Shown here: positions 29,620-60,737 of the stretch, one piece after another | Position numbering within the stretch: position 1 is the first letter of the stretch | Layout: each line of letters starts with the position of its first letter | Assembly (NCBI RefSeq): GCF_964194155.1 | Contig: NC_135893.1 | Location: 58,032,001-58,096,000 of the forward strand | Origin: Cetorhinus maximus | Taxonomy: Eukaryota | DNA length: 64,000 nucleotides | Direction of reading: 5' to 3' | Made by a program: the position numbers and the translations under genes | Notes under the pieces: model-generated | What the model saw: the letters and a program-made list of their open reading frames with translations, nothing else | Database searches by the model: none | Told to the model about the DNA's origin: nothing

Positions 29620-30800
29620 TTACGCTCACACTCCGCGAAAGTGGCAGGTTAGAAAATGGTCCTTGCAGAATAGCTATAGCACAATGAATTTAAGGGGAGG
29701 CAAGCAAAACGAGTTAGATAGAAATACAAACATGTATGTTTGCAGGCAGGAATCATTGTACCTGCAAATGTAAACTAATCTTAATTAGAAAGTGAAATTG
29801 TCACAGGCGAAGCCCGCCTTTCCGTAGGGGGTCACTGAGTAGCAAACAGGAACTGGAGTCTTATCCCGACTCCAGAACGACTCCTGGGTTCGGGATCCTG
29901 ATAAAATTGGCGGGCGCAGGCGAGGGAATCTCACGTCGTTTCCGTACTCTAGGTTTTGGCCGCATTGTGGCACGAGCGAGCAGCATTTTCAAGTATAATT
30001 CACCACACCCCAAATTCCCTCATGTATACCGCGCTTTACTGCTAATAGGCACTAAATTATCCTTTAATTTTCCCGGTTGGTTTATCTATCTATAGCGGGA
30101 CTAACTGCACAGCTCTCAAAGCTGGCACAGACACGATGGGCCGAATAGCTGCCTTCTGTGCTGTAAGATCGTTTTCCCTCAATTGCCTCTCCTCTGTCTC
30201 TTTCCCCCTCTCTTGGTCCGCGCTCTCTCTCCCCTCCCACTCCCTTTTCCCAATGCCACACTGGGTGTTGACTGTCCCCCACCCCCCTCAGACACGCGGG
30301 ATCTCTCCCATTTCCCTGACCGGCTCACAGACGGAAATCCTCTCCGGCTGCCTTCCAACCACAAGGTCTCAGATATCGGCAGCTCCGACCCATCCTCCTG
30401 CCGATAAATGCAGCTCCCAGGCCGGCTGCAGTTTGCTCCCCTCTCCCGGCACCTCGGCTTCTTCCACTCCAGCCTCTGGGCAGCAGCGGAGAGGCCGGAC
30501 TATGTTGGCTCGGGCCAGCTGGCTGCTGCTTCTCTCCAGCACAGGTATCCTCAGCATTCACTCCGACACTCAGGGACACAGAATGGCTTAGGAGCGGAGT
30601 GTAGGGAGATCTATCTATTCTGGGATTGTTTTGCATTATATTTATTACATCGCGTTCTATACTGTTATATTACAGAAATTATTGTATATTACTGTAAATT
30701 CTGCGTTGCATATTTATGGGGGTCCGGATGGCGCCTCACTGACCCTAGAAAGCTTCGTGTTTCGAAGTTGCCCTTCCAGCGGTGTAACAGGACTGACTCC
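29620..30800. promoter_or_regulatory. CpG-enriched region around the first exon of the unnamed mucin-like gene
   Basis: Visibly many CpGs against a CpG-depleted background; TATA-like GATAAAT near 30403, about 100 bp before the ATG. Confidence 0.45.
30502..30544 (+). CDS. Unnamed CUB-mucin-SEA-EGF-TM protein, exon 1 (signal peptide start)
   Basis: actATG; MLARASWLLLLSST+G; donor CAG|gtatcc; phase 1 joins the next exon to give signal peptide MLARASWLLLLSSTGFLLASVQP. Confidence 0.75.
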
Positions 30801-30849
30801 GAGAACTAACTGTGTTCAACAGGGCTTTCTGTCTCGCACTGAGTGTGTT

Positions 30850-33384
30850 TGTGTGTAACAGATCTCAGTGTTCCAGCTCTGACTGTGTGTATATAACAGG
30901 ACTGAGAGATCCCGGTGCTGACTGTGTGTGTATAACAGGACTGAGAGATCCCGGTGTTGACTCTGTATATAACAGGACTGAGAGTTCCCGGTGCTGACTC
31001 TGTCTGTATAACAGGACTGAGAGTTCCCGGTGCTGACTCTGTGTATAACAGGACTGAGAGATCTCGGTGCTGACACTGTGTGTTTAACAGGACTGAGAGA
31101 TCCCGGTGCTGACTCTGTATGTATAACAGGACTGAGAGATCTCGGTGTTGACTCTGTGTGTATAATAGTACTGAGAGTTCCTGGTGCTGACTCTGTGTAT
31201 ATAACAGGACTGAGAGTTCCCGGTGCTGACTCTGTGTATATAACAGGACTGAGAGATCCCGGTGCTGACTCTGTGTATAACAGGACTGAGAGATCTCGGT
31301 GCTGACTCTGTGTGTATAACAGGACTGAGAGATCCCAGTGCTGACTCTGTGTGCATTACAGGACTGAGAGATCTCGGTGCTGACTCTGTGCATATAACAG
31401 GACTGAGAGTTCCCGGTGCTGACTCTGTGTATAACAGGACTGAGAGTTCCCGGTGCTGACTCTGTGTGTATAACAGGACTGAGAGATCCCGGTGCTGACT
31501 CTGTGTGTATAACAGGACTGAGAGTTCCCGGTGCTGACTCTGTGTGTATAACAGGACTGAGAGATCTCGGTGCTGACTCTGTGTGCATTACAGGACTGAG
31601 TGTTCCCGGTGCTGACTCTGTGTATATAACAGGACTGAGAGTTCCCGGTGCTGACTATGAGTGTATAACAGGACTGAGAGTTCCAGCTCTGTGTGTATAA
31701 CAGGACTGAGAGATCCTGGTGCTGACTTTGTGTGTATAACAGGATTGAGAGATCCCGGTGCTGACTGTGTGTGTATAACAGGACTGAGAGCTCTTGGTGC
31801 TGACTCTGTGTATAACAGGACTGAGAGTTCCCAGTGCTGACTCTGTGTGTATAACAGGACTGAGAGATCCCGGTGCTGACTCTGTGTGTATAACAGGACT
31901 GAGAGATCCCGGTGCTGACTCTGTGTGTCTAACAGGACTGAGAGTTCCCGGTGCTGACTCTGTGTATAACAGGACTGAGAGATCCCGGTGCTGACTCTGT
32001 ATGTATAACAGGACTGAGAGATCTCGGTGCTGACTCTGTGTGTATAACAGGACTGAGAGATCCCGGTGCTGACTCTGTGTATATAACAGGACTGAGAGAT
32101 CCCGGTGCTGACTCTGTGTATATAACAGGACTGAGAGTTCCCAGTGCTGACTCTGTGTGCATAACAGGACTGAGAGCTCTTGGTGCTGACTCTGTGTGTA
32201 TAACAGGACTGAGAGTTCCCGGTGCTGACTCTGTGTGTATAACAGGACTGAGAGTTCCCGGTGCTGACTCTGTGTGTATAACAGGACTGAGAGATCTCAG
32301 TGCTGACTCTGTGTGTATAACAGGACTGAGAGATCCCGTGCTGACTCTGTGTGTATAACAGGACTGACAGTTCCCGGTGCTGACTCTGTGTATATAACAG
32401 GACTGAGAGTTCCCGGTGCTGACTCTGTGTATAACAGGACTGAGAGATCTCGGTGCTGACTCTGTGTGTATAACAGGACTGAGAGATCCAGCTCTGACTC
32501 TGTGTTTATAATAGGACTGAGAGTTCCAGCTCTGTGTGTATAACAGGACTGAGAGTTCCTGGTGCTGACTCTATGTATATAACAGGACTGAGAGTTCCAG
32601 CTCTGACTCTGTGTTTATAACAGGACTGAGAGTTCCAGCTCTGTGTGTATAACAGGACTGAGAGTTCCTGGTGCTGACTCTGTGTGTATAACAGGAATGA
32701 AAGTTCCCGGTGCTGACTCTTTGTGTATAACAGGACTGAGAGATCCCGGTGCTGACTTTGTGTGTTTAACAGGACTGAGAGATCCCGGTGCTGACTCTGT
32801 GTGTCTAACAGGACTGAGAGTTCCCGGTGCTGACTCTGTGTATAACAGGACTGAGAGATCTCGGTGCTGACTCTGTGTGTTTAACAGGACTGAGAGATCC
32901 CGGTGCTGACTCTGTATGTATAACAGGACTGAGAGATCTCGGTGCTGACTCTGTGTGTATAATAGTACTGAGAGTTCCCGGTGCTGACTCTGTGTATAAC
33001 AGGACTGAGAGATCTCGGTGCTGACTCTGTGTGTATAACAGGACTGAGAGATCCCGTGCTGTCTCTGTGTGTATAACAGGACTGACAGTTCCCGGTGCTG
33101 ACTCTGTGTATAACAGGACTGAGAGTTCCCGGTGCTGACTCTGTGTATAACAGGATTGAGAGATCTCAGTGCTGACTCTGTGTATAACAGGACTGAGAGT
33201 TCCCGGTGCTGACTCTGTGTATAACAGGACTGAGAGTTCCCGGTGCTGACTCTGTGTGTATAACAGGACTGAGAGTTCCCGGTGCTGACTCTGTGTGTAT
33301 AACAGGACTGAGAGATCCCGGTGCTGACTCTGTGTGTATAACAGGACTGAGAGATCCCGGTGCTGACTCTGTGTGCATAACAGG

Positions 33385-33420
<36 letters not shown>
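30850..33420. repeat. 39-bp minisatellite array (about 65 units) ending in (GT)n
   Basis: Unit ATAACAGGACTGAGAG(A/T)TC(C/T)CGGTGCTGACTCTGTGTGT with 37- and 32-bp variants. Confidence 0.97.
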
Positions 33421-33834
33421 CAGTACAGGATTGAGCATGTATATAACAGGTAATTAAAGGTCTCATGGGACTATTTCAAAGGAGAGTAGGGTAATTCTTC
33501 CTTGTGTCCTGGCCTAATATTTATTCTAAGGCCACCATTACTAGAACCAATTATCTGGTCAATATCATGTTGTTCTTTTTTGGGATTTTGCTATGTGCAA
33601 ACTGGCTGCCACGTTTCCCACATTACAACACTAACTACACTTCAAGAGTACTTTATTGTCTGTAAAGCACATTAGCGTGTCCTGAGATTTTAAAAGTCTA
33701 GGGTCATGGCTGAGTGGGTAGGTGAGCTATAGAAGGACAGCTATGGCTGAGGAACTGTAACATGGCAACAGCTGATGCCTTTAGGAGGGGAGGAGAATGG
33801 GATAAAGGAATAAACAAATACACAACAACAACAA

Positions 33835-34197
33835 TGACTTATATAGCGTCTTTAACATAGTGAAACGTATCAAGGTACATCACATGAACATTATCAAACA
33901 AAATTGACAGAGAAAGCCCCATAATGAGATAGCAGGATAGATGGCCAAAAGCTTGACCAAAGTGATAAGATTTAAGGAGTGTCTTAAAGGAGGAAAGATA
34001 GGCCGAGACGTTTAGGGAGGGAACTGCAGGGCTCAGGGCCTTGGCAGTGGAAAGCATGTCCATCAGTGGTGGCATGTTCAAGGGGCCAGAACTGGTGGAG
34101 CGCAGAGATCTCAGAAGCTTGTAGGGCTGGAGGAGGTTACAAAGATAGGGAGGCATGAAGCCATCAAAGGATTTTGACACAGGATGAGAATTTTATC
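33835..34197 (-). mobile_element. L2-type LINE 3' fragment
   Basis: Minus ORF PPYLCNLLQPY..LRSLRS...SSFKTLLKSY.F.QAF; tail gacgctatataa; related copies at 28915-29110, 35400-35718, 42050-42335 plus 42700-42753. Confidence 0.75.
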
Positions 34198-34251
34198 AGT
34201 ACAGAATTCAAACTTCTGAAATGAAATTAATCAGGGGTTTGTATCCTGCAG

Positions 34252-34632
34252 GATTTCTACTCGCTTCAGTGCAGCCGGACTGTGGTGGTGTTCTGCTGCC
34301 CAGTGTCACCAGTAGAACCCTACAGTATGCCCTACTGGTGACTGACTCCATCAATGGGACCACGTGCTCCTGGATTCTGCAAGCACCCTCTTCAGAGACT
34401 GTTGAGTTAGAGGTTATCTCATACCAGACGGTATCCTGGACAGACACCAGCTGCACCTCTGCTTATCTGGCCATCAAACTGGGGCCAACACAGAAGGAAA
34501 GACGGTTCTGTGACTCATTCAGGAGTATTCCTGAGGTTGGTAGAAAGCTAGTGATTCGAGGGAAAGGGCCGGGTGTTGTCACCCTGCAAGCAGCTTACGG
34601 CATGAAACAAGGATTCACCCTGCGGTACTCAG
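34252..34632 (+). CDS. Exon 2: CUB domain
   Basis: cctgcag|GA...TCAG|gtgagt; phase 1-1 module; DCGGVL...TCSWILQAP...VELEV...CTSAYLAI...RFCDS...QGFTLRYS follows the CUB pattern. Confidence 0.85.
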
Positions 34633-35918
34633 GTGAGTTGTGATACATTATAAACCACATGAGACATTTGGAACTGTTTACGGCCTTTCTCTTGAAAGTA
34701 GGTATGTGAATCTGTTTGTGCATATATATGTCTACATCTGTATTAACTGTGGGTGTCTCCCTGACTGTGTGTGACTCTTGTGTGTCCATATGTGTGTGTT
34801 TGTGTATCTGATTCTTAGAAACATGGAAAATTCTAGCACAGAAGGAGGCCATTCAGCCCATTGTGTCTCTGCCAGCCGAAACACAATTATCCCATCTAAT
34901 CCCACTTTCCAGCTCTTAATCTGTGGCTTTATGGGTTATGGCACTTCAAATGCAGGTTGAAGTAATTTTAAATATAAGGGTTTCTGCCTCAAACACCCTT
35001 TCAGACAGTGAATTCCAGACCCTCACAACCTTCTGGTTGAAAAAAACACTCCTTAATTCTCCCCTAATCTTTCTGCCAATTACTTTAAATCTATGCCACC
35101 TGGTTGTTGATCTTTCTGCTAAGGGGAACAGGTCCTTCCTATCCACGCTATCTAAGCCACTCACAATTTTATAGACCTCAATTAAATCTCCCCTCAACTT
35201 TCTCTGTTACAAAGAAAACAACCCCAGTCGATCCAATCTTTCCTCATAGTTAAAGATCTACATTTCTGACGACAACCTTATAATTCTTTTCTGTACCCTC
35301 TTTAGTGCAATCACATCCTTCCTGTAATACGATGACCAGAACAATATGCAGTACTCTAGCTGTGGCCTAACTAGTGATTTATATACAGAACCTTTTCTTT
35401 TGCTGTAACTTCCTCCGGCTCTAGGACTCCACGCCCAAGATATCTGCCCCTCCAATTTTGGCCACTTGCACACTCCCGATTTTTAATCATGCCACCATTG
35501 GCATGTGCCTTCAGACCCTAAACTGTGGAATTCCAACCATTAAACCTCTCTGCCTTGTTACCTCTTTCTCCCCTTAAGACAATCCTTAGAACCTACCTCT
35601 TTGACAAAGCTTTTGGTCATCTACCATATTATCTCCTAATGTGGCTTTTGTGTCAATTTTGATTGATAACGCTCCTCTGAAACGCCTTGGGATGCTCAAG
35701 GTGCTATATAAATGCAAACCGTGTGTTTTTCTGTTTCTGATTCTTGTCAGTCTGTCACTGTCTAGTATGTGGGTGTTGCTGCAATTCAATTTGTCAATCA
35801 AACATGGTGTGAGTGATGAGGGAACAATGCAGTTTGAGTAGTATTAAAATTCCAGCCGTGTATCTGAGTGCCAGGCTCTGCTGATGAAATTCCAATCACG
35901 TTTTGTTCTCATTCCTAG

Positions 35919-38900
35919 TGCTTGTACCAGACGTGAACCATAGAGAAATTGATACAAGAGCCTTGGAGCTGCGAACTCTGACTCCATTATCTTCCTCAGT
36001 GTGGGGGGAGGGTAAGCAAGTTGACCTCAGCAAAGGAGAGGCTGTGACGTTCTCTACATCAACTGGACAGGGGCAGCAAATCATTCCGGAATATCCCAGC
36101 ATGTCAACAGTGCAGGGGAGACCAGGGCCTCCCTGGACCCATCAGTCTTCCTGGTCTCCTGGACATCCTAAGCTCCCAGGCCATCCTTCAGATCAAGGAC
36201 TGAGGACTCAAGCTCAGTTGCAGCCAGGAGAAGTCCCAGCAACAAAGGATTCCCAGTTAGATTCCAGAACCACACTCCACCTCAAATCTCTGGGAACACA
36301 AACTTCCCCAGAAAGGTCTAAAATTTCACAAGGTCCAGTAACCCTTAAAATTGCTACTGTTTCAGATTTCAACACCAGCCCCCAAGTCAATCTTGCCTCC
36401 ATTCTCCTATCCCCCTCCCCCTCTGGCCCCGGTCCGAGCTCCCCCTCCCCCTCCGGCCCCGGTCCGAGCTCCCCCTTCCCCTCCAGCCCCGGTCCGAGCT
36501 CCCCCTTCCCGTCCGGCCCCGGTGCGAGCTCCTCCTCCGGCCCCGGTCCGAACTCCCCCTCCCCCTCTGGCCCCGGTCCGAGCTCCCCCTCCCCCTCCAG
36601 CCCCGGTCCAAGCTCCCCCTCCGCTTCCAGACCTGGTCCGAGCTCCCCCTCCCCTTCTGGACCTGATCCAAGCTCTCCCTCCCCCTCCGGCCACGGTCCG
36701 AGCTCCCCCTCCCCCTCTGGCCCGGGTCCGAGCTCCCCCTTCCACTCCCGCTCTGGCCCCGGTCCGAATCCCCCATCCCCCTCCGCATCTGGCCCCAGTC
36801 TGAACTCTGCCTCCACTCTAACCCTCAACTCCAAACTGAACCTCGACTCAACTCTGTCTCTCGGCCCCAGACTTCCATTCTCTTTTTTATCTGACAGTAC
36901 AAGTACGATTGATAATACGCCATTATTAAGTTTGAAGAAGTCATTAGCAAAATCTTCAGTTATTCAAAACAAAGACCAGAGGAATGTGATGAACCAAAGC
37001 AGAACCAAACTGAACAGCCAGCCTACCCTGGACTCATCAGAACGACCCTGGGGCACAGATTCCAACTCAGGGCAGCTGCCACTGCTGACCAGCACATGGA
37101 CTGTGGAACCCACTGAGATGAACACTAGTGAAGAAGACATGGATACCAGAAATGATGCCAATACTCGCCCAGTCAGTATTTCACTGGGAGGACCAAAATC
37201 CCGGCTAAAGATCTCAGGAGAACTTGTAACCAGCATTTCACCAAACACTGACCAAGCATCAACAACCCAATCAGCAGGGACAATGCCACCAATGGCATTT
37301 AAAATCCCCTCCGTCACAGCGAGCGTTTCTGGAGATGAGGTTTCTAATGATCAATGGAGGAGCCGCCAGCGGGACCGCTCATGCACACATGGCATCACGC
37401 TTTCGGCAGACCCTGAGATTGAACTAGTGACAAGGCCCCAGTCATGGGACGAAGTGAAGGTTCCAGTCACGTCGACCCCAGCTCGTGACCTTTCAGCTCA
37501 TTTAAGTATTCTTGCCGATGAGGGAGTGGTGGAGATTTTCCCAGGGAGTGGTTCTGTGAACAGGGTGGAAAGATCCAGTACAGCAAGCGACACAGCATGG
37601 ACTGAAAGTCAGGACCAAAACTCCCTTCCGGGTGTCCCTGCCAGCCCCAGTGAGCTTATCACACCTCACTCAGAACAAGGCAGGAAACAGGAAAGTGAGT
37701 CAGATCAACACACACTTTTCTTCTCTCAGACCACTGACATTTCAGAATTGCTCTCCACTCAAAATGTAAACACACAAAATCTCGTAAACAGCTTCAAGAT
37801 GGATCCAGTGGTAGGGGCAGTGAATCAGCTAGAAACCACTCATTGGACATTAGATTTCAAAGACACTTCATCAGATTTTGATGGATCCATTACATCAACT
37901 CTCAACCAAGTAATGATTAAATCTGTGTCCAGTTCCGGGAACATGTTTGAAGTTCCTGAGCTGATGACCCATTCTTCAAACCTTCCAGTACAGGAAGTTA
38001 CTAATGGTGCTGAAAAAGATACTGCAACACTGAGCTATGAGTCAGGACCCAGTGGCAGTGCATGTCTTCCTGAAATACTTCCAGCAGTTGCCTCTCTGAG
38101 TAGTGCCGTCACGACACAGAGTGCTCGATCACAGTTCCCAATAACGGATGAAAATGCCCTCACGACACAAGGGAGATTGTTCACTAACAGAATCCTCAGC
38201 TCCATTTCATTGACTCTAGGTATGACTCTCGCTGCCAACTCTGTTGATGGAAGTGGAGGTGAAATGGTGTCAAGTGAAGTGACAGAGGCTAGTGGTGGTG
38301 TTACAGGCAGGGGCTCTGAGATTCCAAGTACTAGAGACACCCAAGTGGAGGATGATGGGAATGTGACACTGTTAACCTTCACTAAAGATGGAACGACCAA
38401 GGTGATGGCCACTCACAGCCAAAGGTTGGAGGTTACTCCGAGGGCTAAAAGCAGTTCAGGAATCTCAGTCATTTTTGACTTAGCAGGGACTGAAAAGAAT
38501 GGCAACAGAATGAATACTCTCCATGACAGCACTATTGAAATGATGGTTACCACAGAACCTTCTGGTAAAACCGCTTGGTTTGAGGGAGGAACCAGTTCAC
38601 CGTCAAATTCTGGAGGGAAAAATACAGGTGGGTCTCTAACTGAAGGTAACATTGTATATGGGGACAGAGTCCCATCATTCAGCCCAAGAACACCTGCACC
38701 AGAGCCCATCATACCACAGCCACCAGCGAGTGTAAGCCCAACATCCATTGAAGTTGATCGCAGTGCAATTCCACCTAAAGAAATCTTTTCAACCACCCTG
38801 TCACTCACATGGTTGCCAGGGAGTTCTTCAACAGACTTGGAGGCATCCCCATCACTGACCAGTACTCGAGGAACCATTGCTCCAACCTTAAGTAAAACCA

Positions 38901-40022
38901 CAATGCCCAGATCTGACAATCCAATCTCATCTTCAGGAAAGACAACTGAGGCACAAACGTCTGCAGGTGAGAGGCTCAGAGAAACATTAACCTCAGTAAT
39001 GAACCAAACTTTCCAGGAGGTGACTGAGATGAGCAGACCAGTAATTGCCTCGGGAACACCATCCTTTACTCCAGGATCCTTGGATCAAACTCAGCCTGAT
39101 ACCAGACCCCCAACATCTCCTTCGCTTCCAGTGCTGACTGACTCTGTTGATTCAGTGACAAACTTGGCACAGCTTCTGCCATCTGTATCCACCTTTGAGA
39201 CAGCATCTCAACCATCATCTGACCAGACTGGCACAGGGAGTTCACAAACATTTGGCAGCTCCTCTGCAACCTCTGGTGTCTCAGATAGAGGGGAACCAAC
39301 CTGGCCAGCCACCATCGATTTGAAGATTACAGTTCCTCCTCCTCCAGCTTTTCCTTCTGCTGAAGAGGAAGAAAAGCTTGTAACCAGTGAGGAACCTACC
39401 TTGTCATGGATGCTTCGGGTGAACCAGTTGGGATCACAGCCTAATGATGGTTCTCCTGTCACACACGTTGGCACAAAGGATCTTAACAGCGATCTATCCC
39501 AATCTGCCAAGCCCGGAGGAAACAAACAGTGGCAAAGGGAAATATTGTCAACACTTGCTGCTGCACACTCTGCCACCACTGAGGGCTTTTGGACGTGGGG
39601 TCAATCTGATTTAGGGACACTGTCAACTGGCCATGGGATTGTCCCAACCTCGGGGTCCTCAGCTTCTCCTGAAGGAGCCACGTCACTTCCAGCAGTTACA
39701 ATTATAGCCAAGTCAGTGATAACTCACAGGATTCCCACCACCCCAACACCTAGCCGCGCTGAAAGCTGGACACTGGGCAGGGATGACACCTCTCCAAACT
39801 CGCCCACCCCAGGATTGGGAATGCTGACGTCACTGACGCCAACGTCGCAGCCTCTGCACTCACACATTAACCCAACATCATCAGAGAGAGCTGTCCAAAC
39901 CACAATGCACCAACCTACACTAGGCACACTCAGGGAGCTGATGAACTCGGTCCCGTCGTCCACTCCAACAGAGAAACGTAAACAAATTTTCATCGTGGGG
40001 AATAAGCTGCCGCTGATCAAAG
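35919..40022 (+). CDS. Exon 3: 4104-bp Ser/Thr/Pro-rich mucin/proteoglycan-like stalk
   Basis: Uninterrupted 1376-aa ORF in the track; ttcctag|TG...AAAG|gtgagt; phase 1-1; S/T/P rich. Confidence 0.92.
36405..36800 (+). repeat. Coding 30-bp tandem repeat (PSPSGPGPSS, about 12-13 units)
   Basis: Repeated ccccctccccctc(t/c)ggccccggtccgagct. Confidence 0.9.
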
Positions 40023-40319
40023 GTGAGTTTTGATGATAACTGACCAATCCCAAGCTTGAATGGTCAGAACTGACCTCTGACTTCAGGCCAGAGTTTCTTT
40101 GTTTATTATATTGAGGAGCATCGACAATCTGTGCATGGGGCAGTCAGAACAATTTAGTCCCTGGGCTTCGATGGGAAGGGCGGGGAAAGTTGTGGGGGCG
40201 GGTGTTGGTTTCTCCAGTTACTTTCTCTAGAATCAAGGAGGTCTGTTCAAAGACACCTTTAATGACACTGCAACATCAACACATTTCCATTGTGGAGCTG
40301 GGGGATTTAGAGAAAAGAA

Positions 40320-40740
40320 AGAACTTGCATTCACATTGCACCTTTCATGGTCTCAGGATGTCCCCAAGTGCTTTGCAGCCAATGAAATACTTTTGAAGTG
40401 CAATTACTGTTGTAATACAGAAAACATGTCAGCCAATCGCACACATTAACTTTGTTTCTCTCTCCAGGTACTGCCAGACCTGCTGAGTTTTTTCCAGCAC
40501 TTTTGTTTTTATTTCAGATCTCCAGCATCTGCAGTATTTTGCTTTTATTATTCCACAGTGATAATGACCAGATAATCCATTTTAGTAATGTTGATTGAGG
40601 AATAAATATTAGTCAGGGCACTAAAGAGAACTGCCCTGCTCCACTTCATAATAGTCTTGTGGGATCTTTACATCCGCCTGAGAGGGCAGATAAGCCCTTG
40701 GTTTAGCATCTCATCCAAAAGACAGCATCCCTGGCAATGA
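40320..40740 (-). mobile_element. SacSINE1/DeuSINE-like fragment with an inserted Penelope-like end (about 40445-40550)
   Basis: Similar to 58006-58462; internal tgccagacctgctgagtttttccagca...ccagcatctgcagta. Confidence 0.65.
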
Positions 40741-40786
40741 GATATAAAGACACGTGCTGGAAACACTGGGATATAGAGCAGGGACA

Positions 40787-40980
40787 CATTGGGAACAATG
40801 GGATATGGAGGGTTCACCGAGAACATTGGGATGTTGAGGGTACATTGGGAACAATGGGATATGGAGGGTTCACCGAGAACATTGGGATGTTGAGGGTACA
40901 TTGGGAACAATGGGATATGGAGGGTTCACCGAGAGCATTGGGATGTTGAAGGTACATTGGGAACAACGGGATTATAGAGG
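40787..40980. repeat. 56-bp tandem repeat, about 3.5 copies
   Basis: ggatatggagggttcaccgagaacattgggatgttgagggtacattgggaacaatg at 40801, 40857 and 40913. Confidence 0.9.
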
Positions 40981-42771: not shown

Positions 42772-42887
42772 AGGGCGTCACAGTGAAGATTCCAACAAAG
42801 CTCATTCTGGACAAGAATTTTACTGTCCAGTTGGAAGACTCGACATCTGAAGAATACCAGAACCTGGCCAAGGATTTCACACACAAA
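42772..42887 (+). CDS. Exon 4: SEA domain N-terminal part
   Basis: tcttccag|AG...AAA|gtgagg; GVTVKIPTKLILDKNFTVQLEDSTSEEYQNLAKDFTHK matches the SEA F..L.D..S.EY..L...F pattern. Confidence 0.9.
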
Positions 42888-46079: not shown

Positions 46080-46138
46080 GTTTCTCCATTTTATAAGAAA
46101 GTTCCTGGATTTAAGCAGCTGCTGGTTAAATACTTCAG
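46080..46138 (+). CDS. Exon 5: SEA domain middle
   Basis: ttctgcag|GTT...TTCAG|gtgatt; VSPFYKKVPGFKQLLVKYFS; phase 0-2 bridges exons 4 and 6. Confidence 0.85.
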
Positions 46139-46670: not shown

Positions 46671-46703
46671 CTGTTGCCTTATTTTAGTGACCTGTTTCCA
46701 CAG

Positions 46704-46867
46704 TGCGGGCAGCGTGTTGATCGAGTTCGATGTTGTCTTCATTGCAAAGGAAATCCGAGCTTACCTGCTGGACCCCAATTCGATTGTCAATGTTACTGGC
46801 TTGCACAATGCGATCGCAGGTGGCTTTGAGATTGACAGGGCCCGGGTGCTGAGAGTGTATGTTTCAG
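46704..46867 (+). CDS. Exon 6: SEA domain C-terminal part with G-SV cleavage motif
   Basis: ttccacag|T GCG GGC AGC GTG...TCAG|gtaact; AGSVLIEFDVVF... Confidence 0.9.
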
Positions 46868-47569: not shown

Positions 47570-47732
47570 AGGATTTCATTGCTTTGTGCGGTGAGGTGTT
47601 TTCCTGCCAGACTGGGTTCCAGTGCATTCACAGTGATACGAGGAATGTAAGCTGTACCTCCCTTTGCCACGCTGGATACTGCAAAAACAGTGGCATCTGC
47701 ACTCACAACCAGGGCCAGGGGCCCATCTGCCA
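47570..47732 (+). CDS. Exon 7: Cys-rich / EGF-like
   Basis: tctgcag|AG...GCCA|gtaagt; LCGEVFSCQTGFQCIHSDTRNVSCTSLCHAGYCKNSGICTHNQGQGPIC. Confidence 0.93.
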
Positions 47733-48714
47733 GTAAGTGACACATTTTTCCACTTGCTTGGAGTGTTTGTCAGTTTCAGTATGGACCAGGAAACTCAAAA
47801 CAACCTTGTGCCAGCTGCTATCAAGCTTACACTCTGAGATAGGAAGAAGAGTTGCCATTTAAACCCTCAAACCTATTCAGCAATTCAATAAGATTATGGC
47901 TGATCTGCAACCTAACTCCGTTTACTTGCCTTGCCTCATAGCCATTAATACCTTTGTTAACAAAAATCTATCAATCTTTCAATTTTAAAGTTAACAATTG
48001 ATCCAGCACCAATGTCCATTTGTAGAAGAGTGCTCCAAACTTCTATCACCCTTTGCATGTAGAAGTGTTTCTTAATTTCCTGAAAGGTCTGCCTCCAATT
48101 TTTAGACTCTGCCCCCAGTCCTGTATTCTCTAACTAGTGGAAATAGTTTATGCCAATCTACCCTTATCTGTTCCCCTAAATGTCTTGAAAACTTTGGTCA
48201 AAGCACCCCTTAATTTTATAATTCAAAATGGTACAACTTTAGTTTGTTTAATCTCTCCTCATAGTTTAAACTTTTGAGTCCAGGTTTTTTTTTTAATATT
48301 CGTTTACGAGACGTGGGCATCACTGGCTGGGCCAGCATTTATTGGCCATCCCTCGTTGCCTTTGAGAAGGTGGTGGTGAACTGCCTTCTTGAACCGCTGC
48401 AGTCCATGTGGTGTAGGTACACCCACAGTGTTGTTGGGGAGCGAGTTCCAGGATTTTGACCCAGTGACAATGAAGGAACAGCGATATATTTCCAAGTCAG
48501 GATGGTGAGTGGCTTGGAGGAGAACTTTCAGGTGATGGCGTTCCTATGTGTCTACTGCCCTTGTCCTTCTAGATGGTAGTGGCCAGGGGTTTGGAAGGTG
48601 CTGTTTAAGGAGGCTTGGGATCTGCAACCTAACTTTGTTCCCTTGCCTCATATCCATTAATACCTTTAACAAAAATTTATCAATCTTTCAATTTTAAAGT
48701 TAACAATTGAACTA

Positions 48715-51700: not shown

Positions 51701-52392
51701 CACCATCTACAAGTCAAAATTCAGCTGGAATACTCTCCACTTGCCTGGATGTGTGTAAATCCAACAGCACTCAAGGTCACAGCACTTTGTTTGATTGGAA
51801 CGCTATTCATCACCTTAAACATTCACTCCTTCCACCACTAGTGCCATGTGACCTGCCTTGTGTACCATCTACAAGATGCGCTGCAGCAACTTGCCAAGGC
51901 TTCTTCAATAGCACTTCCTAAACCCACAACCTCTGGAAGGACAAGGACAGCACCACTACCTGCAAGTCTCACACCATTCTGATTTGGAAATATATCATCA
52001 TTTCCTTCACCATTGCTGGATCAAAATCCTGTAATTACCACATTATCGAGGCAATTAGGAATGGGAAATAAATGCTGGCCTTGCCACATGTGATGAATAA
52101 ATAAATATGTGAAAAAAAGAGGCCTTTGATTTAAGATAATTGGCAAAAGAACTGTAGGGGAAATGAGAATTTTTTTTCAAAGGGCTGTTCTGATCTGGAA
52201 CGCACTATCTAAAAGGGTGATGGAAACAGATTTCATAGGAACTTTTAGTAGGAATTTGGACATATATTTGACAAAAACTAATTTGCTGGGATACGGGAAA
52301 AATGCTGTGTGGGGCTTAATTCGACAGTTCTTTCAAAGAGCTGGCACAAGCATGATGGGCTGAATGGCTTACTTCTCTGCTGTAAGATTCTT
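48715..52392 (+). mobile_element. Highly decayed CR1 LINE with nested MITE and nested CR1-group fragment (about 50910-52110)
   Basis: MIPGMRDFSYVDRLEKLGLF, VPQGSILDP, FFQRAVLIWNAL fragments. Confidence 0.8.
49166..49571. mobile_element. Tigger4/MER46-like MITE
   Basis: TA|CAGGTCGAGTATCTTTATC ... GATAAAGGATACTCAACCTG|TA terminal inverted repeats with TA TSD. Confidence 0.85.
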
Positions 52393-52431
52393 ATGGAATC
52401 TCCTGTGAAGAATCATCAAATTGTATTGCAG

Positions 52432-52623
52432 GTGCCCTGTGGGTATTGATTACTGGTTCATGGGTCCCAGGTGTGACCACAGAATGACCCGGCAGAACCT
52501 GATTGGAATCGCACTTGGTGTAGTGCTCAGTCTCCTGGTTGTCATTACTGCTGTTGCGATCGCTGTCCTCAGAAGGTTCAAGGTCTTGTTGATTGAGGCC
52601 AAAATTGACCAGACGAAAAGCAG
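52432..52623 (+). CDS. Exon 8: end of EGF, transmembrane helix, stop-transfer
   Basis: ttgcag|G TGC...GCAG|gtaaga; CPVGIDYWFMGPRCD...LIGIALGVVLSLLVVITAVAIAVL-RRFK. Confidence 0.93.
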
Positions 52624-53544
52624 GTAAGAGAACACCCATCAGAGCTGGTCTCACATCTGTCAGGTGGGGTTGCATCAACTCTGGAGAAAGGGTGGGAATG
52701 GGTCATAATGGGAGGGGAGGTGCAGAGAGATCTGTGACCTATGTCTGGGTTCAGACCTCCACGTTTCCCTACAACTGCAGGGATCTGTTAGCTGAATGGC
52801 CTGCTTCTGTGCTGTAAATACTATTAATATATTGTAACAGTGACTGTCATGATATCTGCAAATTCATGGGAGCAGGGATTTAAATTCTATCCATGGCCCC
52901 TCCCCAAGAATGGGGTATCACCCAAGTGACCCCCTTGAAGGCAAATGCTTTCAACTCTGTACTCGCAATGTGCAGGATGATTCCCTGATGATCTTGCTTC
53001 CTCCGTTTTGCAATGCTGCCAGCTAAAATATCACATCTTGAAGAGCAAAGGGGATGGATTTAATTAACATGGAAATTACACCAAAAACTGTGTTGAAATA
53101 GAGAGGTAGCTGTATGGGATCCATGAGAATGGGAAGGGCAATGATAATAGTAGGACACATGCAGTAAGGACTCATTGATCATTGGGGCCTGACCTGCTTC
53201 TCGATGTAGGACAGACAGAGCTGATTTATAAGGCGTGAGCACAGCTTCATTTGCCACACCTCCGAAGGTTAATTCATACCAGCAAGTTGTGCAAATTGCC
53301 TCATTAATATGCATGGTCTATTGGTCTCTGTGCCTCTTGGTTATGTCCTTGTTGCTTTGTGCTGTTCAGATGGATTTAAAGAACTGGATTTAATAAACAC
53401 ATTTATTCTTTCAGTCAAATTACCTCACTCCCACAAGAATGCAGCAGCACAAAGGACACAAGCAAGACACTGCCTTCTCACTATCCCTATCCTCTCTGTC
53501 GTTTTCTGGCTGTAATCTGTCTCTCTACCTCACTGTGTTTCTCA

Positions 53545-54750
53545 TTCATAGAATCACAGAATGATTACAACACAGGAGGCCATTCGTCCTATCTTGTCCT
53601 TGCTGGTTGCCTGTAAGAGTAACTCAGTTAATCCCACTCCCCTGCCCTTCCCCCACAGTCCTGGGCCGGGATTTCCTGGTTGGCGAGTGGGGGGTGGGGC
53701 CACGGGCGGGATGAGGTTTCACCTAGGTTTATAAATTTTTAATAAAAGTGAAACTGAAAGTGATGGACATGTCCCCTCATGTGACAGTGTCACATGAGGG
53801 GACATGTCAGGGAATTTTTTTTTTCTGTTTTTAATATTTTTTAATGTGTAGCCAATCTCCCTGAGGCAGCACTTGGCCTCAGGGAGATGAGTGCGCTCTT
53901 TCGTGTGCATAGTGCTTCCTTGCGGACATCACGCTGGGTGGGCCTTAATTGGCCCACCCATGTAAAATGGCGGTGCGCCCGCTCTTGAACTTCCCCCCCG
54001 ACAGGGGGAAAATTCTGATCCTGCATTTTTTTCTCTTCAGGTACTTATCCAATTTCCTTTTGAAAGCCACAATTGAGTCTGCCTCTACCACACTCTCAGG
54101 CAGTGCATTCCAGATCCTAATCACTCACTGCATAATAAAATTCTTCCTCATGATTGGTTTTTTCACCAATCAACTTAAATTGTGAGCTAGTGGGAACAGT
54201 TTCTCGCTATGTACTAAGTCTAGACTCCTCATGATTTTGAACACTTGCATCAAATCGCCTCTCAACCTTCTCTTAGGAGAACAACCCTAGCTTCTCCAAT
54301 CTGTCCATATAACTGAAGTCCCTCATCCCTGGAACCTTTTTCATAAATCTTTTCTGCACCCTCTTCTCACCCTCCCTAAAGTGCCCTTAATTGGAAACAC
54401 TTCTCTATTTGAGGCTGAACCAGTGTTTTATGAAGGTTCATCACAACTTCCTTGCTTTTGTACTCTATGCCTGTATTTCTAAAGCCCAGGATCCTGTATA
54501 CCTTTTTTAATCATTTTCTCAACCTGCCCTGCAACCTTCAATGATTTGTGCACGTATACCCTCAGGTCTCTCCGCTCTTGTACCCCCTTTAAAATTGTAC
54601 TCTTTATTTTATATTGGCTTTCTTCATTCTTCCTACCAAAATGTATCACATCACACTTCTCTGCATTAAATTTCATCTACCACATGTCCGCCCGCTCCGC
54701 CAGTCTATGTCCTCTTGAAGCCTATCACTATCCTCCTCACAATTCACAAT
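53545..54750 (-). mobile_element. CR1 LINE 3' fragment
   Basis: MKFNAEKCDVIHFGRKN...ERRDLRVYVHKSLK; tail catagaatcacagaa. Confidence 0.85.
53663..54021. mobile_element. GC-rich MITE-like insertion with a central perfect palindrome
   Basis: Interrupts the CR1 tail; imperfect inverted ends GGGCCGGGATTTCC / GGAAAATTCTGATCC; 21-bp perfect inverted repeat at 53766-53808. Confidence 0.65.
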
Positions 54751-55469
54751 ACCTCTGTCTCTCTATCTCACTATCTCTTCCCCTGTCTCTAGGTCCCTCC
54801 CTTTTTACCCATCTCTTCCTTGTCACTCCCCCTCTAATGGTCACAAGGAAGAGGAGTGACTTTGGGATGCTGTGAAAAATGTGGGGAGGGAATGGGACAG
54901 ATCAAGTGGAAGGAATGGGTGGAGCGAAGAGATGGAATGTATTGGTGAGAGAGAGATGGAATGGGATCCAGACAGCTCAGCACACCATGTGATTCTGAGA
55001 TCCATGCACCAGGAAGAATCCAAGTTCCACCTTGTCTGCACATTAACCAGTCTCAGCTACCAGTCAGGGAATGAGAATTAGCCTCATTGCCTTGGGTTGG
55101 GTGAATGGGGGGTGGGGGGTGGCGGGTGTGTGGAACAGGACAGGGATGGAAGAAAATTAGCCAGGAATTATACTTAGCTGAAAAGTCATGAACAGAAAAA
55201 TAAATCTGGAAGGCTGCAGCCCAGTCAGTGAGTGCAGCAGAGTAACAAACTGGAACACAAATTCAGACAGGGGCTAATGACCAGATTTCCTCCTGACCCC
55301 TGTTTACCTAAAGCAGTTTCTTGTTTCCTGCTCCCCTGAGCTGCATTTCCTCAGCTGCTCATCTCAAACTTTTGGTTTCAGTACTAGCAACTGGTATTGC
55401 ATCACTTGGATGTGGAGGAATCCTGCTCCGGTCTTAACAATAGACTGTGTTAACTAAGGCAGCCTAAAC

Positions 55470-56105
55470 TTCCACCCAACGCTCCTCCCTCGCTCCCACC
55501 CCCTTCCTCCCTTCTCACTCTTTCTTCCCCTTCCCTCTCCCCTCTCCATTTCTTTCTCTCTCTCATCATACCCCTCTCCCCTCCCTCATTCCTTCTCCAA
55601 CATCTCCCCTCCCTCTCTCCCTTCTTCTCGCCTACCTCACTTCCTTCCCCATTACCCTCCCTTCCTCCCACGCCCCCTTGCTCCCTCCCTTCTCTTCCCT
55701 GCCTCCCCCACCTTCCTCCTCCTTTCCACTGCTCCCCCAACCCCACGTCCTCCCTGCTCCCTCAACCTCCATATCCTCCCTCCCTACCCTACTGCCCTAT
55801 CTGCTGCCCTGGTCTCCTCCCTCACACGCTTCTCCCCTCCCTCCCTACCCACCCACTCTTTCTTTCCCCTCCCTCTCTTGCTTGCTTCCTCCCCCTCTCC
55901 TTCTCCCTCCCTCTCCCCATCCCCCAAGTCCCTCCCTCTTCTCCGCTCTCACCCTCATTCTCCTCCCCTCCCTCTTCCCTCTCCCTCCCTTCCTCTCACC
56001 CATTCCCCCTCTTCCCCAACTCCCTCTCCCCTTCCCATCTCCCTCCATCCAAATCTCTCTCATCTCCTTTTCCCTCCCGTTCCCCCATCTTCCCCTCCCC
56101 CTTCA
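55470..56105. repeat. Low-complexity polypyrimidine (CT-rich) tract
   Basis: About 630 bp almost entirely C/T on the + strand. Confidence 0.9.
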
Positions 56106-57619
56106 TGAAATGCTGAAAAATTTTGGCATCCATGAAGGATCAAAGGAATTAACTGTTCAGGCATGGCATTGTCACAAGTGGATGAACAGACTGAATGAAG
56201 GAACACATCAATATGTTGCTTTGTCAGATGAGTGTTTGTAACTCTCTCCAATCCCCTGCAGGTGTCAACCCGCTGAGGAAAGTTCACCAGACCCTGGTCA
56301 ATATCCAGTGCCATGTACAAGTGACCGATGAATATGGGTTGGGTACAATTAACAACTTGGACAGATGGTGAAATTAGCCATCTAGATGGTTAAGTTACTA
56401 CGGACATGTTGAAGAGGTGGTGGGGTTCTGTCACAGGGATGGTTGCACAGTGTTTGATTCCAGGTGCAGCCACTTCTGGTGACGGCACTGAAACCTGCTA
56501 CATTCTCAGTTGAGTTTGTTGCTCAGGTGGACTTGACCATCACCTAATTCTCAGAACCAGTGTGGGGTTTAATGACAGTGCCCGTCATGCTGGCCATCAC
56601 TGTTCCATGTTCTCAAACCTGAAATAAGATTAGTTTGGGACATCACCGTCCAACATACTGCCTTTTAAGAGTCTAACCACTCTGGTATGTAGAAATTGAG
56701 GCGTGCTGGTGGAAGCGGATGTTTCCTTGACTCCAGCCTAGGCAACAGCTGAAACTCTCTCTACAAGTCCTTGAAGCCTGTCTTGAATTTTCCTTTTTAT
56801 TGTTTGAGTTTTACTAACAGGCCCCAGGGAGTAGGAGAGAAACAAAGAAATGCATAACAGCACCAGATCTATCCAACATGATATCACTTAGAAACCTTTT
56901 GGGGATCCACAGCCCAGATGGGAGTGTGTACATATGCACACACACAACACAAACAGCATATATATATCATATAGATGACTAGTGTGTGGTTCAGAATAAC
57001 GCCAACGGCATGAGATCAATTCCTGTTCTGGCTGAGGTGGATTTGGAACCTGCCTCCTTGCCTGCCCCTGAGATTGGAAGGCAATGATGAATCACCAGAC
57101 AAAAAACTGCTAAGAAAACAGCTCAGGATTAAGCATCAGCAGACAATGAGCCACGAACCTGCTTTTGTGCAGAGCACAGATAAATAAATTAGTGTATTTT
57201 TATATACACACACACATGGTTATCTTATGCCTGAGCGACGATCCCAGTGTGTGAAAGAGCAGTATCTAGCCCACTGTCCCAGCTGGTGAAAGACAGAGCC
57301 TGACCTCCCTGTAACGGTTCCATCCCCTGTGTTTCATTCAGTTTTTTTACCCTCTCCCGCTGACTTTGCTCTGAAACCAGCTAGCAGAAGGCACCAGGCT
57401 CCTGGAGACTCCATTCATAATTTTCAGTATGGACCGATCTAACTGTCACCCAGTGCTGGCAGAGCTGGAACTCAGAACTGACTAGTAGACAGAAACATGG
57501 GTAGAAACTCTTCACCCGTGCCCTGTCATCCCAGGCAAAGCTCAGACTGAGTGCTCAGGGACCAGACTCAAACACTTTCAGGAAGTGATGTTGTGACCTT
57601 TCTATTTTTCCCTCTCCAG

Positions 57620-57847
57620 TTACAAGCGCTTCAGTCGGTTTGATGATTTCTCCAATCAATACCAGTCCCAGTCCTGGCTCAACTACTCAGTCAGTTCTTT
57701 GGACAATCCTGGCTTCAGTAACTCAGATGAGCTGATCCACCTGCAGATGTTGGACAGCAGTTACTACTCCTGTCATGAGGAGTCTGTGACAGGTACCTAC
57801 AGCAGCTGGAGGACAGCCCCCCACGGTCGATCAACCTTCAGGCACAG
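57620..57847 (+). CDS. Exon 9: cytoplasmic tail
   Basis: ctctccag|T TAC...ACAG|gtaaag; phase 2-2, open; YKRFSRFDDFSNQYQSQSWLNYSVSSLDNPGFSNSDELIHLQMLDSSYYSCHEES... (not in the ORF track). Confidence 0.88.
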
Positions 57848-58005
57848 GTAAAGACCATTAGTAAGAAAACAAACTACAAATAAAAGACAGAAATTGGCGG
57901 AATTGTATAAAAGTTAGGGACAAGAAAACACACATCCAAGTCCACACTGTTCTGTCAGGGTCTGACTCTCTGGTGCCCTGACTTTCCAGTCAGAGAAAGA
58001 TAGCT

Positions 58006-58462
58006 GTACATTTATATAGTGCCTTTCACAATCTCAGGATGTTCCCAAACTCTTTACAGTGAACAAAGTACTTATGAGGTGTAGTCACTTGTAATGCAGG
58101 AAAGGCAGCAGCAAATTTATGCACAGAAGATTTCACAAACAGCAATATTGTCAATGATCATATGATAATGACCAGATAATTTTTTTTTCAGTGATGTTGG
58201 TTGATGGATAAATATTAACCCGAACAATGGGAATAACTCCCATGCTCTTCTGAATAGTGTAACTGGATGTTTTACATCCACCTGAGAAGGCAAACAGGGC
58301 CTTGGTTTAATCTCATCTGAAAGATAACACCTCCAACAATGCAGCACTCCATCAGTTAGCACTGGAGCATTAGCCTGGATTTTCTGCTTAAGTCTCTGGA
58401 GTGGGTCTTGAACCCACAATCTTCTGACTCAGAGGCTAGACTGTGACTCACTGAGCCATGGC
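58006..58462 (-). mobile_element. Near full-length SacSINE1/DeuSINE-like SINE
   Basis: Minus strand: box A TGGCTCAGTGAG, box B GTTCAAGACC, body, L2-like tail aaaggcactatataaatg. Confidence 0.75.
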
Positions 58463-59044
58463 TGGTTGAAAGCCTGTCTCTGGTGCCTAGACTCTCTCAG
58501 CCTTAAACACTACATCCTGACCTAGTAGATTCCAAATGTTTCTCTGAAATTGGGATCTCAAACTGCCTGTGACTTTTGCTACTATAAAGACATTTGTTTG
58601 ATGTTACCGGACAGGTTTACAACGATTTTTAGGATAGTAAGAGGTTAAGTTTTGCTCCTGTTTTTGAAATTCTCAGTTGGTGGGTGGATGTTGGGAAGTT
58701 TGCCACGATCCTGAAATAACATCCGTAGTGAGATTCGGGTGGTGACCAGGGCGAGAGACAAACAAACCTTCCCCACCCCAACAGACCAGCCCCAGCTCTT
58801 GTCACTCTGCATTATCAAAGGGGCTGCAGTTGCTTTTTCCTTTAACCTTAACCTTGTTAATTAAGAAGGTGCAGCTCAGAGTCCAGCCCCCAGAGAGCTA
58901 AACTGAGTTTAGTTCCCACTGATAGCACTGAATAATTACCAGTGTTAGCTCCACCCAATTAATCTTAAAACCAACACAAGTCAGTGAATGAGGGGGCCCA
59001 TCCCGTTACTGAGTCAAGGCCAGACTCCATTGAGCCTCAATATT

Positions 59045-60255
59045 TTTGTATTCTTCACAGGATGTGGGCATTGCTGGCTAGGCCAACATTGGTTACCCAT
59101 CTCGAATTGCCCTTGAGAAAGCAGTGGTGAGCTGCCTTCTTGAACCACTGCAGTCCATGTGGTATAGGTACACCCACAGTGCTGTTAGGGAGGGAGTTCC
59201 AGGATTTTGAAGGAACCAGCGATATAGTTCCAAGTCAGGATGGTGTGTGGCTTGGAGAGGAACCTGTAGGTGGTAGCGTTCCTATGCATCTGTTGCCCTT
59301 GTCTTTCTTGGAAATAAAGGTCACGAGTTTGGTGCATTCAAGAGCCTTGGTGATTTGCTGCAGTGCATTTTGCAGATGGTACACACTCCTGCCACTGTGC
59401 TTCGGTGGTGGAATGAGTGTTTAAGATTGTGGATGGGGTGCGAATCAAGCGGGCTGCTTTGTCCTGGGTGGTGTCTATCTTCTTCAATGGTGTTGGAGCT
59501 GCACTCATCCAGGCAAGTGGAGAAGATTCCACCACGCTCCTGACTTGTGCATGTATGATGCTGGGGACCTCAGGAGGAGGCTGAAATTGATCATCCAGTC
59601 AGCACTTCTGGCTGAAGATGGTTGCAAATACTTCAACCTTGTCTTTTGCACTCATGTGCTGGGCTCCCCTGTCATTGAGCCTCCTCCTTTTCCATTTAGT
59701 TGTTTAATTGTCCACCACCATTCATGACTGGATGTGGCAGGATTGCAGAGCTTAGATCTGATCTATTGCATGTTGCTTCTGCTGATTGGCATGCATGTAG
59801 TCCTGTGTCACTTCATAAGACACCTCATTTTTAGGTATGCCTGGTGCTGCTTCTGGCTCTCTTCATCGAACCAGGGTTGAAATCCCAGCTTGATGGTAAT
59901 GGTGGACTGGGGCATATTCTGGGCCATGAGATTACAGATTCTGGTTGAATACAGTTCTGCTGCTTCTGATGGCCCATAGTGTTGTATGGATACCCATTTT
60001 GAGTTGCAAAACTGGGTATCCATACGACAGATACAGACGGCAGATTTCCTTCTCAAAAGGACATTAGTGAAGTAGGTAGGCTTTTACAACAATCGACAAT
60101 GGTTTCATGGTCACCATTACTGAGACTAGCTTTTAATTCTGAATTCATTAATTGAAATGCCAGTAGCTGCCGTGGTGGGATTTGAAACCAGAGTATTAGC
60201 CTGGGCCCCTGGATTGCTCCTCCAGTGACTATTACTATAGCACCATCTCCCCCTT
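59045..60255 (-). mobile_element. CR1-group LINE pieces followed by an HE1-like SINE (about 60035-60255)
   Basis: SPLAWMSAAPT.LKK.DT.QDKAARLI; SINE resembles the copy at 42350-42700. Confidence 0.7.
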
Positions 60256-60583
60256 GGGCTGTGTTGAGTCTGCTGATCCCAAGCTGAGTGGCAGGGGAAA
60301 TAAGGGGAGGTGGAGGGGATTGGAATGTTGAGCAGGAAAGGAGTTTTGGGGAAGGCAGAGGAAAATCACCCAGGGTTTCCATACCTAATCACTAATTTGT
60401 TGGAAAGTGCACATACAGATGTAAGCAGAGGAGAGTTGCTGATGGTCATTCAGAAGCTGAGACTTCCAATGGTCAGCTGCTAACTTAGGGACACTCAGTA
60501 GTGCAATGACTTTCCACTCAGTACTCTGAATGCTGGGTGTGCCCAAATGAGTCATTTTTTTCAAGTTAACTTTTTTGCTTTAG

Positions 60584-60737
60584 TTTACAAAACAATCTGG
60601 ACGTCAGTATCAACAGCATCAATGAGCATGCTGGGGACTCCGGAAAAGCCAGTGACTTGTCTGTTTACAGCTGGCCCATTGAACCTCTCCAGTGGTCACC
60701 CTTTCCAATCCTGTACCAGCTGAGCACGGACAGACCT
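60584..60737 (+). CDS. Exon 10: cytoplasmic tail; no stop, gene continues
   Basis: gctttag|T TTA...CCT|gtaagt; LQNNLDVSINSINEHAGDSGKASDLSVYSWPIEPLQWSPFPILYQLSTDRP. Confidence 0.85.

Follow-up and report, generated by a model that had tools for sequence, protein, structure and literature searches.

Which gene encodes a shark protein that starts like a CUB receptor, continues as a mucin and ends in a long cytoplasmic tail, and what could such a protein do? The question is raised by a 64,000-nucleotide (nt) stretch of basking shark (Cetorhinus maximus) DNA, below called the window (contig NC_135893.1, positions 58,032,001 to 58,096,000, forward strand), in which ten exons join into a single open frame. 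An initial annotation of the letters alone took them for an unnamed receptor-like mucin with the order signal peptide, CUB, stalk, SEA, EGF, transmembrane (TM) helix and tail. That order is borne out by Pfam, hydropathy, composition and the predicted fold of an ortholog. The word "unnamed" did not last, because RefSeq annotates the gene as vap. No new gene has been discovered here; the most probable zebrafish ortholog of the shark gene is vap.

The ten exons were verified in length, splice sites and frame. All are bounded by GT-AG introns (AG at 9 of 9 internal acceptors, GT at 10 of 10 donors), and on splicing and translation they fuse to 5604 nt, or 1868 codons, without a stop. Exon 3 (4104 nt) holds a frame of 1367 codons, and the longest frame in 1000 base shuffles of it was 333 amino acids (aa; mean 135). 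The extent given to the gene was right for these ten exons but missed the C-terminus. Exon 10 terminates in a GTAAGT donor, so the gene extends past 60737. The last coding exon, exon 11, lies outside the window at L002:752-826, 752 nt past its end, and encodes 24 aa ending in W-T-A before a stop and about 1.7 kb of 3' untranslated region (UTR). With exon 11 the complete protein is 1892 aa. The ten-exon model is a real spliced shark gene that is incomplete within the window. Its parts are as follows.

30502..30544, + strand: coding part of exon 1, residues 1-14, the start of the predicted signal peptide, with a GT donor and open frame; orthologs P0028, P0003 and P0008 align from residue 1.
34252..34632, + strand: exon 2, residues 15-141, which complete the signal peptide and hold a divergent four-cysteine CUB domain; contigs of 4/4 runs cover it.
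35919..40022, + strand: exon 3, residues 142-1509, the Ser/Thr/Pro-rich stalk, phase 1 at both ends.
36410..36785, + strand: tandem repeat in exon 3, a 30-nt unit in 12.5 copies, GC-rich and encoding a Ser/Pro/Gly-rich segment (Tandem Repeats Finder, TRF).
42772..42887, + strand: exon 4, first part of SEA (Pfam SEA E 0.0012).
46080..46138, + strand: exon 5, SEA, identical in the RefSeq model P0027.
46704..46867, + strand: exon 6, SEA with the cleavage-type motif G1570|SVLI at 46708-46722.
47570..47732, + strand: exon 7, a Cys-rich unit and the first part of the EGF-like domain.
52432..52623, + strand: exon 8, end of EGF, TM helix (about 52499-52570) and a basic stop-transfer segment.
57620..57847, + strand: exon 9, tail with Y-x-x-F (57621-57632) and N-P-x-F (57705-57716).
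60584..60737, + strand: exon 10, tail with DSGxxS-xx-S-xx-S (from 60636) and a conserved Trp/Pro-rich block.
60738..64000, + strand: intron 10, which runs beyond the window end; exon 11 is outside.

Two last-exon candidates within the window, at 60813 and 60881, were ruled out because contigs exit at 60737 and orthologs end as L002 does. An out-of-frame ATG is found 94 nt before the start, and its frame overlaps the vap start codon (30408-30544, +). This upstream ATG may sit in the 5' UTR; contigs carry 171-254 nt 5' of exon 2. Intron 1 is mostly a 2.5-kb tandem array of a 39-nt unit in about 66 copies (30879-33388).

Splicing can be followed in transcript-like contigs. Parts of exon 3 are present in 13 presumed RNA runs of two related organisms and in one unclassified run from a third; none is recorded as RNA. 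Contigs of four runs were mapped on exons 2-8 and of four on exons 9-10, five different runs altogether. The joins of exon 2 to 3 and of exon 3 to 4 had been set beforehand as the check on the model. Contigs in X2, X3 and X18 (three of the four runs) splice exon 2 to exon 3, and the X1 contig ends at the end of exon 2. In X1 and X18, hence in at least two of four runs, a single contig links exon 3 with exons 6, 7 and 8 across a 174-nt unlisted gap that corresponds in length to exons 4 plus 5. The outcome that would have spoken against the model, a lack of such joins, thus did not arise. Contigs of X1, X18 and X3 (3/4 runs) pass exons 9 and 10 and exit exactly at 60737 with 1723-1814 nt remaining. 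Those of X19, a small run with the species label of the source DNA, leave exons 9-10 uncovered. Exons 7, 8 and 9 each have one match in the genome, so the gene is single copy.

Support for the individual domains is uneven. The N-terminus is hydrophobic and predicted to be a signal peptide (hydropathy only). Exon 2 matches the Pfam CUB profile below the cut-off (E 0.0047), with cysteines at 25, 53, 82 and 101 that amount to two Cys pairs. A single-sequence fold was unusable (predicted local distance difference test, pLDDT, of 36), and the structure was instead predicted for the stalk-less bamboo-shark ortholog P0028 from a 46-row alignment; this protein is 79% identical to the basking shark in exon 2. 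In the P0028 model, SEA, EGF and TM reach pLDDT 76-96 and the tail stays below 50. Residues 27-137 match many CUB chains at Z 6.5-7.9, each middling alone, the best being a spermadhesin (Z 7.9, root-mean-square deviation (rmsd) 2.7, 87 aligned). Residues 145-259 match SEA domains, with MUC16 SEA5 at Z 12.4 (rmsd 2.4, 107 aligned). Foldseek concurs on these folds with weak E-values, and its top row, also weak, is the GPR126/ADGRG6 ectodomain. A phmmer search with the CUB exon found nothing in the PDB. The CUB, SEA and EGF folds are supported on the ortholog model.

The SEA domain itself exceeds the Pfam cut-off (E 6.9e-9), and the cleavage-type motif ascribed to it is present: G1570|SVLI lines up with the site at which the GPR110 SEA is cleaved. 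The EGF-like region has 10 cysteines and gives Pfam EGF matches on orthologs at E 0.0007-0.04, below the cut-off. There is one TM segment, with 19-residue hydropathy up to 2.98 in windows starting at 1700-1705. The stalk is 29% Ser plus Thr and 11% Pro, or 40% for the three combined, with 2 cysteines. Of its 1259 100-aa windows, 928 reach 25% Ser plus Thr with 5% Pro and only 11 reach 40%. As had been claimed, it is mostly non-repetitive, and TRF detects only the 30-nt repeat. The tail has no Pfam match and no usable match in the Atlas. The short isoform as a whole yields no more than leads there; among them, clusters named "zgc:66455" hold a chordate family with CUB and calcium-binding EGF domains (feature score 0.86-0.88) that is a possible distant relative.

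The identity of the gene follows from several comparisons. Residues 499-1868 (1370 aa) are 100% identical to P0027, the RefSeq "uncharacterized protein vap" of Cetorhinus maximus. P0027 lacks the first 498 residues, and P0026 additionally lacks exon 8. P0027 shares a 90% cluster with a catshark protein named "si:ch211-14k19.8", and from database labels we infer that vap and si:ch211-14k19.8 (ENSDARG00000088975) are one zebrafish gene. Loach P0079, labelled "Vascular associated protein" in UniRef, belongs to the clade of the shark gene (SH-aLRT, a branch test, 97) and has a CUB-like N-terminus, stalk, EGF, TM and tail motifs in the shark order. Labels and tree therefore place zebrafish Vap/si:ch211-14k19.8 in the same family. 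Compared with this Vap, the shark protein is longer (1892 versus about 1220 aa), retains a well-defined SEA and in it the cleavage motif lost by teleosts, and has stalk-less relatives. Exon 9 as a query is matched by 24 of 34 candidate proteins, whose species extend from sharks to turtles. Many orthologs carry wrong automatic names, including IMPG2, mucin-2/4/5AC/17, collagen-like and NACA-like. Many bird orthologs (P0213-P0310) are likewise mislabelled, as IMPG2, CSPG5, MEP1B or collagen-like.

When 1.84 billion representatives were searched with a profile, 90 matched at E 1e-30 or better. The 29 that are named come from lamprey, hagfish, chimaera, sharks, rays, bichir, paddlefish, teleosts, coelacanth, lungfish, amphibians, lizards, turtle, birds and platypus. 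Among the 61 unnamed ones none is closest to platypus, and three resemble unrelated SEA proteins. No marsupial or placental candidate occurs among these 90 top representatives, and a second search had no mammal among the best 120 of 354 matches, which agrees with the initial annotation, where no named human gene with this domain order was known. A quick tree was built from 128 rows, left from 145 once near-duplicate turtle and isoform rows were dropped; no named mammalian mucin is in it. It roughly mirrors the species tree, unites 99 of the 128 rows in a single clade (SH-aLRT 97), with IMPG2-like and other SEA proteins outside it, and puts platypus alone on its branch. The vap family thus extends from lamprey to platypus, and its absence from protein collections, with no therian genome searched, indicates that it was likely lost in marsupials and placentals. 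A tie between this loss and the enucleation of red cells was rejected, because platypus keeps the gene and its red cells are enucleate. The initial annotation likened the membrane-proximal architecture to that of MUC3/12/13/17 mucins; by tree and alignment the closest named outgroup is instead IMPG2.

Family members differ in what they carry outside the membrane. Exon 3 has phase 1 at both ends, and therefore its in-frame skipping is possible. Indeed, five database predictions from four cartilaginous fish species (P0003, P0004, P0028, P0008 and P0029, from sawshark, bamboo shark and stingrays) join exon 2 directly to exon 4, and bamboo shark has both long and short models. RefSeq isoforms of shark (P0026) and turtle (P0047) skip exon 8, with the TM helix; their products would be secreted and their EGF disrupted. 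Sturgeons, coelacanth, lungfish and turtles have a Cys-rich EGF-like unit behind the CUB that is missing in sharks. The SEA cleavage motif is found in 133 of 189 distinct SEA regions, including those of lamprey, hagfish, chimaera, sharks, coelacanth, turtles, birds and platypus. The 56 regions that lack it come mainly from teleosts and frogs, the others from lungfish, bichir, some turtles and wrongly predicted rows. All 17 members measured retain a stalk, 500-1850 aa long and 20-35% Ser plus Thr, although its sequence is not conserved; outside cartilaginous fish the non-repeat stalk is about 25% identical or less. The EGF region is 54-97% identical wherever it is present.

The cytoplasmic tail, 168 aa long, is 99% identical in white shark, 67% in sturgeon, and 47% in loach and platypus. 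Its motifs were counted in 195 tails with a family-type end, drawn from 310 stored proteins by way of 243 scored as family and 220 distinct tails; 25 truncated or alternative ends were dropped. DSGxxS occurs in 194 of them and the S-xx-S-xx-S run in 193, as compared with about 1% of shuffled tails. S-Y-x-x-F is found in 190 tails, W-P-x-E/D-P in 190, [DN]-N-P-x-F/Y in 184 and a C-terminal W-T-A in 185, the last count being partly circular in that rows were picked by their end. The lamprey tail retains S-Y-x-x-F, DSGxxS and the last block. Y-x-x-F and N-P-x-F may act as sorting signals, the spaced serines as a kinase relay, and the C-terminus as a ligand of PDZ type. DSGxxS has the form of a betaTrCP-substrate motif and is a putative degron. 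Across the ortholog sequences compared, the conserved core of the family is EGF-TM-tail.

The reading that we favor, with somewhat more confidence than doubt, is that of a predicted type I membrane glycoprotein: a cleaved, length-switchable, mucin-type glycocalyx or contact receptor on vascular cells whose turnover is degron-controlled. Its first step is the spliced gene with the order CUB, stalk, SEA, EGF, TM and tail. The composition of the stalk of about 1350 aa suggests that it would be O-glycosylated, and at an assumed 0.25-0.35 nm per residue it could place the CUB as far as about 0.3-0.5 micrometre from the membrane. By its motif and by comparison with MUC1 and GPR110, SEA would cut itself at G1570|S1571; the CUB-stalk half would then stay non-covalently bound until shed by force or proteolysis. 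GSVVV-type SEA cleavage and shedding by force are described in passages of PMC6954182 and PMC9564314. Skipping of exon 3, as the database isoforms suggest, would put the CUB straight on SEA and so act as a long/short switch. The tail motifs point to a control of surface residence in which Y-x-x-F and N-P-x-F would serve sorting, phosphorylated DSGxxS would recruit SCF-betaTrCP for ubiquitin-dependent endocytosis, and the conserved W-T-A probably binds a scaffold. In PMC3036580, DSGxxS is reported to drive endocytosis of IFNAR1 and PRLR.

The vascular site in this proposal is drawn from zebrafish data alone. The title of Kawahara, Endo, Dawid 2012 (PMID 22510405) names erythropoiesis and angiogenesis, and in sections of PMC11968557 si:ch211-14k19.8 appears in a ZFIN blood-vasculature set and shifts under angiogenesis inhibitors. 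The searched literature, which misses most subscription journals and the primary paper, has vap only as two citations and two gene-list mentions. Within those bounds the family range, splice forms, tail motifs and apparent therian loss were not found, nor was any paper on the synteny. New here are the N-terminus missing from the long RefSeq models of sharks, the stalk-less models, the conservation of DSGxxS, and the loss of the SEA motif in teleosts and frogs.

A series of observations weighs against our proposal. The CUB part of the P0028 model reaches a pLDDT of only 43-73; in the alignment behind that fold, long rows were out of register over the second half of the CUB, which lowered confidence in it. 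No contig bridges the repeat at 36410-36785, so that none covers CUB to TM in one piece. Of 132 long family rows, only 47 have a CUB-like start; the truncated shark models lack it, and so do all the named models of amphibians, lizards, birds and platypus. Teleost orthologs, among them loach Vap, and frogs have no cleavage motif, and P0079 has no Pfam SEA match; by their sequences, teleosts, the only lineage with functional data, probably do not self-cleave. The initial idea of a ligand-binding CUB on a sheddable tether is therefore not the core function of the family, because large parts of it have no CUB, and large parts no cleavable SEA.

Other points concern the zebrafish link and the tail. 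Probable orthology to zebrafish vap is drawn from labels and from a tree in which a loach relative stands for the teleosts' Vap, and the zebrafish study of 2012 was reportedly a morpholino study. PMC3706446 records si:ch211-14k19.8 as enriched in iridophores as well. The 195 tails are bird-heavy and related, hence not independent; Y-x-x-hydrophobic appears in 91% of shuffled tails; the bichir model has no degron and the hagfish model none of the tail motifs. Finally, according to PMC3036580, DSGxxS in GHR is dispensable for hormone-induced endocytosis.

Of the other explanations, a passive anti-adhesive or lumen-spacing sialomucin fares best, though we consider it unlikely. Only the bulk of the stalk would matter, the tail would sort and anchor, and CUB and SEA cleavage would be accessory, by analogy with endomucin and podocalyxin. 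Just such a protein would keep stalk size and composition while stalk sequence drifts, as do all 17 members measured, and would tolerate the loss of the CUB and of the cleavage motif, each of which is gone from large clades. Yet the EGF and the 168-aa tail are conserved far beyond the needs of a spacer, and the models of four cartilaginous fish species dispense with the stalk altogether.

Much less probable is an IMPG2-like membrane-bound proteoglycan that would organize extracellular matrix via glycosaminoglycan chains. IMPG2 is the nearest named outgroup (23% identity over 347 aa of SEA-EGF-TM, E 1e-18), and it shares the succession of SEA, Cys-rich unit, EGF and TM; many bird orthologs bear its name, and the shark stalk has 26 Ser-Gly pairs. 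However, IMPG2 has two SEA domains (two in P0159) where the shark protein has one, it has no CUB, its tail is unrelated and without DSGxxS or SYxxF, and the shark protein falls in a separate clade outside IMPG1/IMPG2. Many of the Ser-Gly pairs, moreover, lie in the Pro-rich repeat without acidic neighbors.

We give the same low weight to a precursor of a shed EGF-like ligand, in which the membrane-proximal EGF would be released or presented to an ErbB-type receptor. Strong conservation of the EGF region and the TM-skipping isoforms of shark and turtle would suit it, and the best sequence matches among solved structures are EGF, an EGF/TGF-alpha chimera and epigen. These matches are weak, however (E 0.04-0.88), and skipping of exon 8 removes part of the EGF cysteines.

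Slightly less probable still is a minor or absent long CUB form, with a short CUB-SEA form and a CUB-less form from Met499 as the real products: the long RefSeq models of six sharks (P0001, P0002, P0005, P0009, P0010 and P0027) do begin just after the repeat that no contig crosses, without signal peptide and CUB, but contigs in three of four runs join exons 2 and 3, the frame is open through the repeat, a start at Met499 has no hydrophobic signal, and CUB plus stalk are found in the sevengill-shark RefSeq model P0054 (2417 aa, complete domain order), in P0152 and in sturgeon, coelacanth, lungfish, turtle and teleost models.

The receptor that we favor can be set beside better-known systems. 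With MUC1, MUC3/12/17, MUC13 and MUC16 it shares a stalk mostly in one large exon, a SEA with a G|SV motif and a TM helix, and it has both a SEA domain and one TM, the features of SEA-type mucins. It differs from them in its N-terminal CUB, mostly non-repetitive stalk and longer conserved tail. MUC3/12/17 have the order EGF-SEA-EGF, whereas the shark protein has no EGF before SEA (no cysteine in residues 857-1629). By analogy it may work like a SEA-type transmembrane mucin, for which parts of PMC9564314, PMC6954182 and PMC1552070 supply background, and it belongs to the Vap family, not to MUC3/12/17, IMPG or the adhesion G-protein-coupled receptors (GPCRs). HEG1, compared by its description in PMC1552070, is a cardiovascular protein with a Pro/Thr/Ser-rich (PTS) region, EGF and TM and with membrane and secreted isoforms, but that paper found no SEA in HEG and lists no CUB. 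GPR126/ADGRG6, according to PMC6954182, combines a CUB at its N-terminus with a SEA that can be cleaved, and a splice switch alters the shape of its ectodomain. It has seven TM helices and a GAIN domain, whereas the shark protein has one TM and a mucin stalk and is no adhesion GPCR.

In the shark genome, vap is flanked upstream by PALB2 and an NDUFAB1-like gene and downstream by a TNRC6-type gene, which we take from human synteny to be TNRC6A. PALB2/NDUFAB1 and TNRC6A are presumably not neighbors in human 16p12. Exons for the WD40 domain of PALB2, whose 3' end is in the window, lie at 1703-1918, 9611-9844 and 16322-16567 (+). A PP-binding (acyl-carrier) exon, some 5.5 kb upstream of the vap start, and a CpG-rich region whose frame resembles a transit peptide (about 22400-22860 and 24717-24950, +) are most likely NDUFAB1. 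TNRC6/GW182 exons, converging on vap, are found 11-40 kb past the window (L003:1258-2273, L004:1862-2074 and L005:4366-9359, -). A PALB2 intron contains a broken long terminal repeat (LTR) retrotransposon-like element with reverse transcriptase, RNase H and integrase fragments (13063-15327, +), and a LINE-like repeat has a 352-codon reverse-transcriptase frame (7103-8158, -).

A far bolder version of our proposal, which we hold to be rather improbable, would make vap an ancient vertebrate signaling receptor in a class of its own. A CUB placed by splicing either at the membrane or hundreds of nanometers away, a self-cleaved SEA as force fuse, and a betaTrCP phospho-degron along with further invariant tail motifs would together feed a pathway of vessel and red-cell maturation, kept by all non-therian vertebrates and lost in marsupials and placentals at an NDUFAB1-TNRC6A chromosome break.

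The finding matters modestly. vap is little studied, its orthologs are hidden by wrong names, and in sharks its long models are missing the N-terminus. Because the tail is conserved, it can be tested directly and at low cost in zebrafish or chick. Should marsupials and placentals indeed have lost it, vap would be a vascular gene that is invisible to human-centered work.

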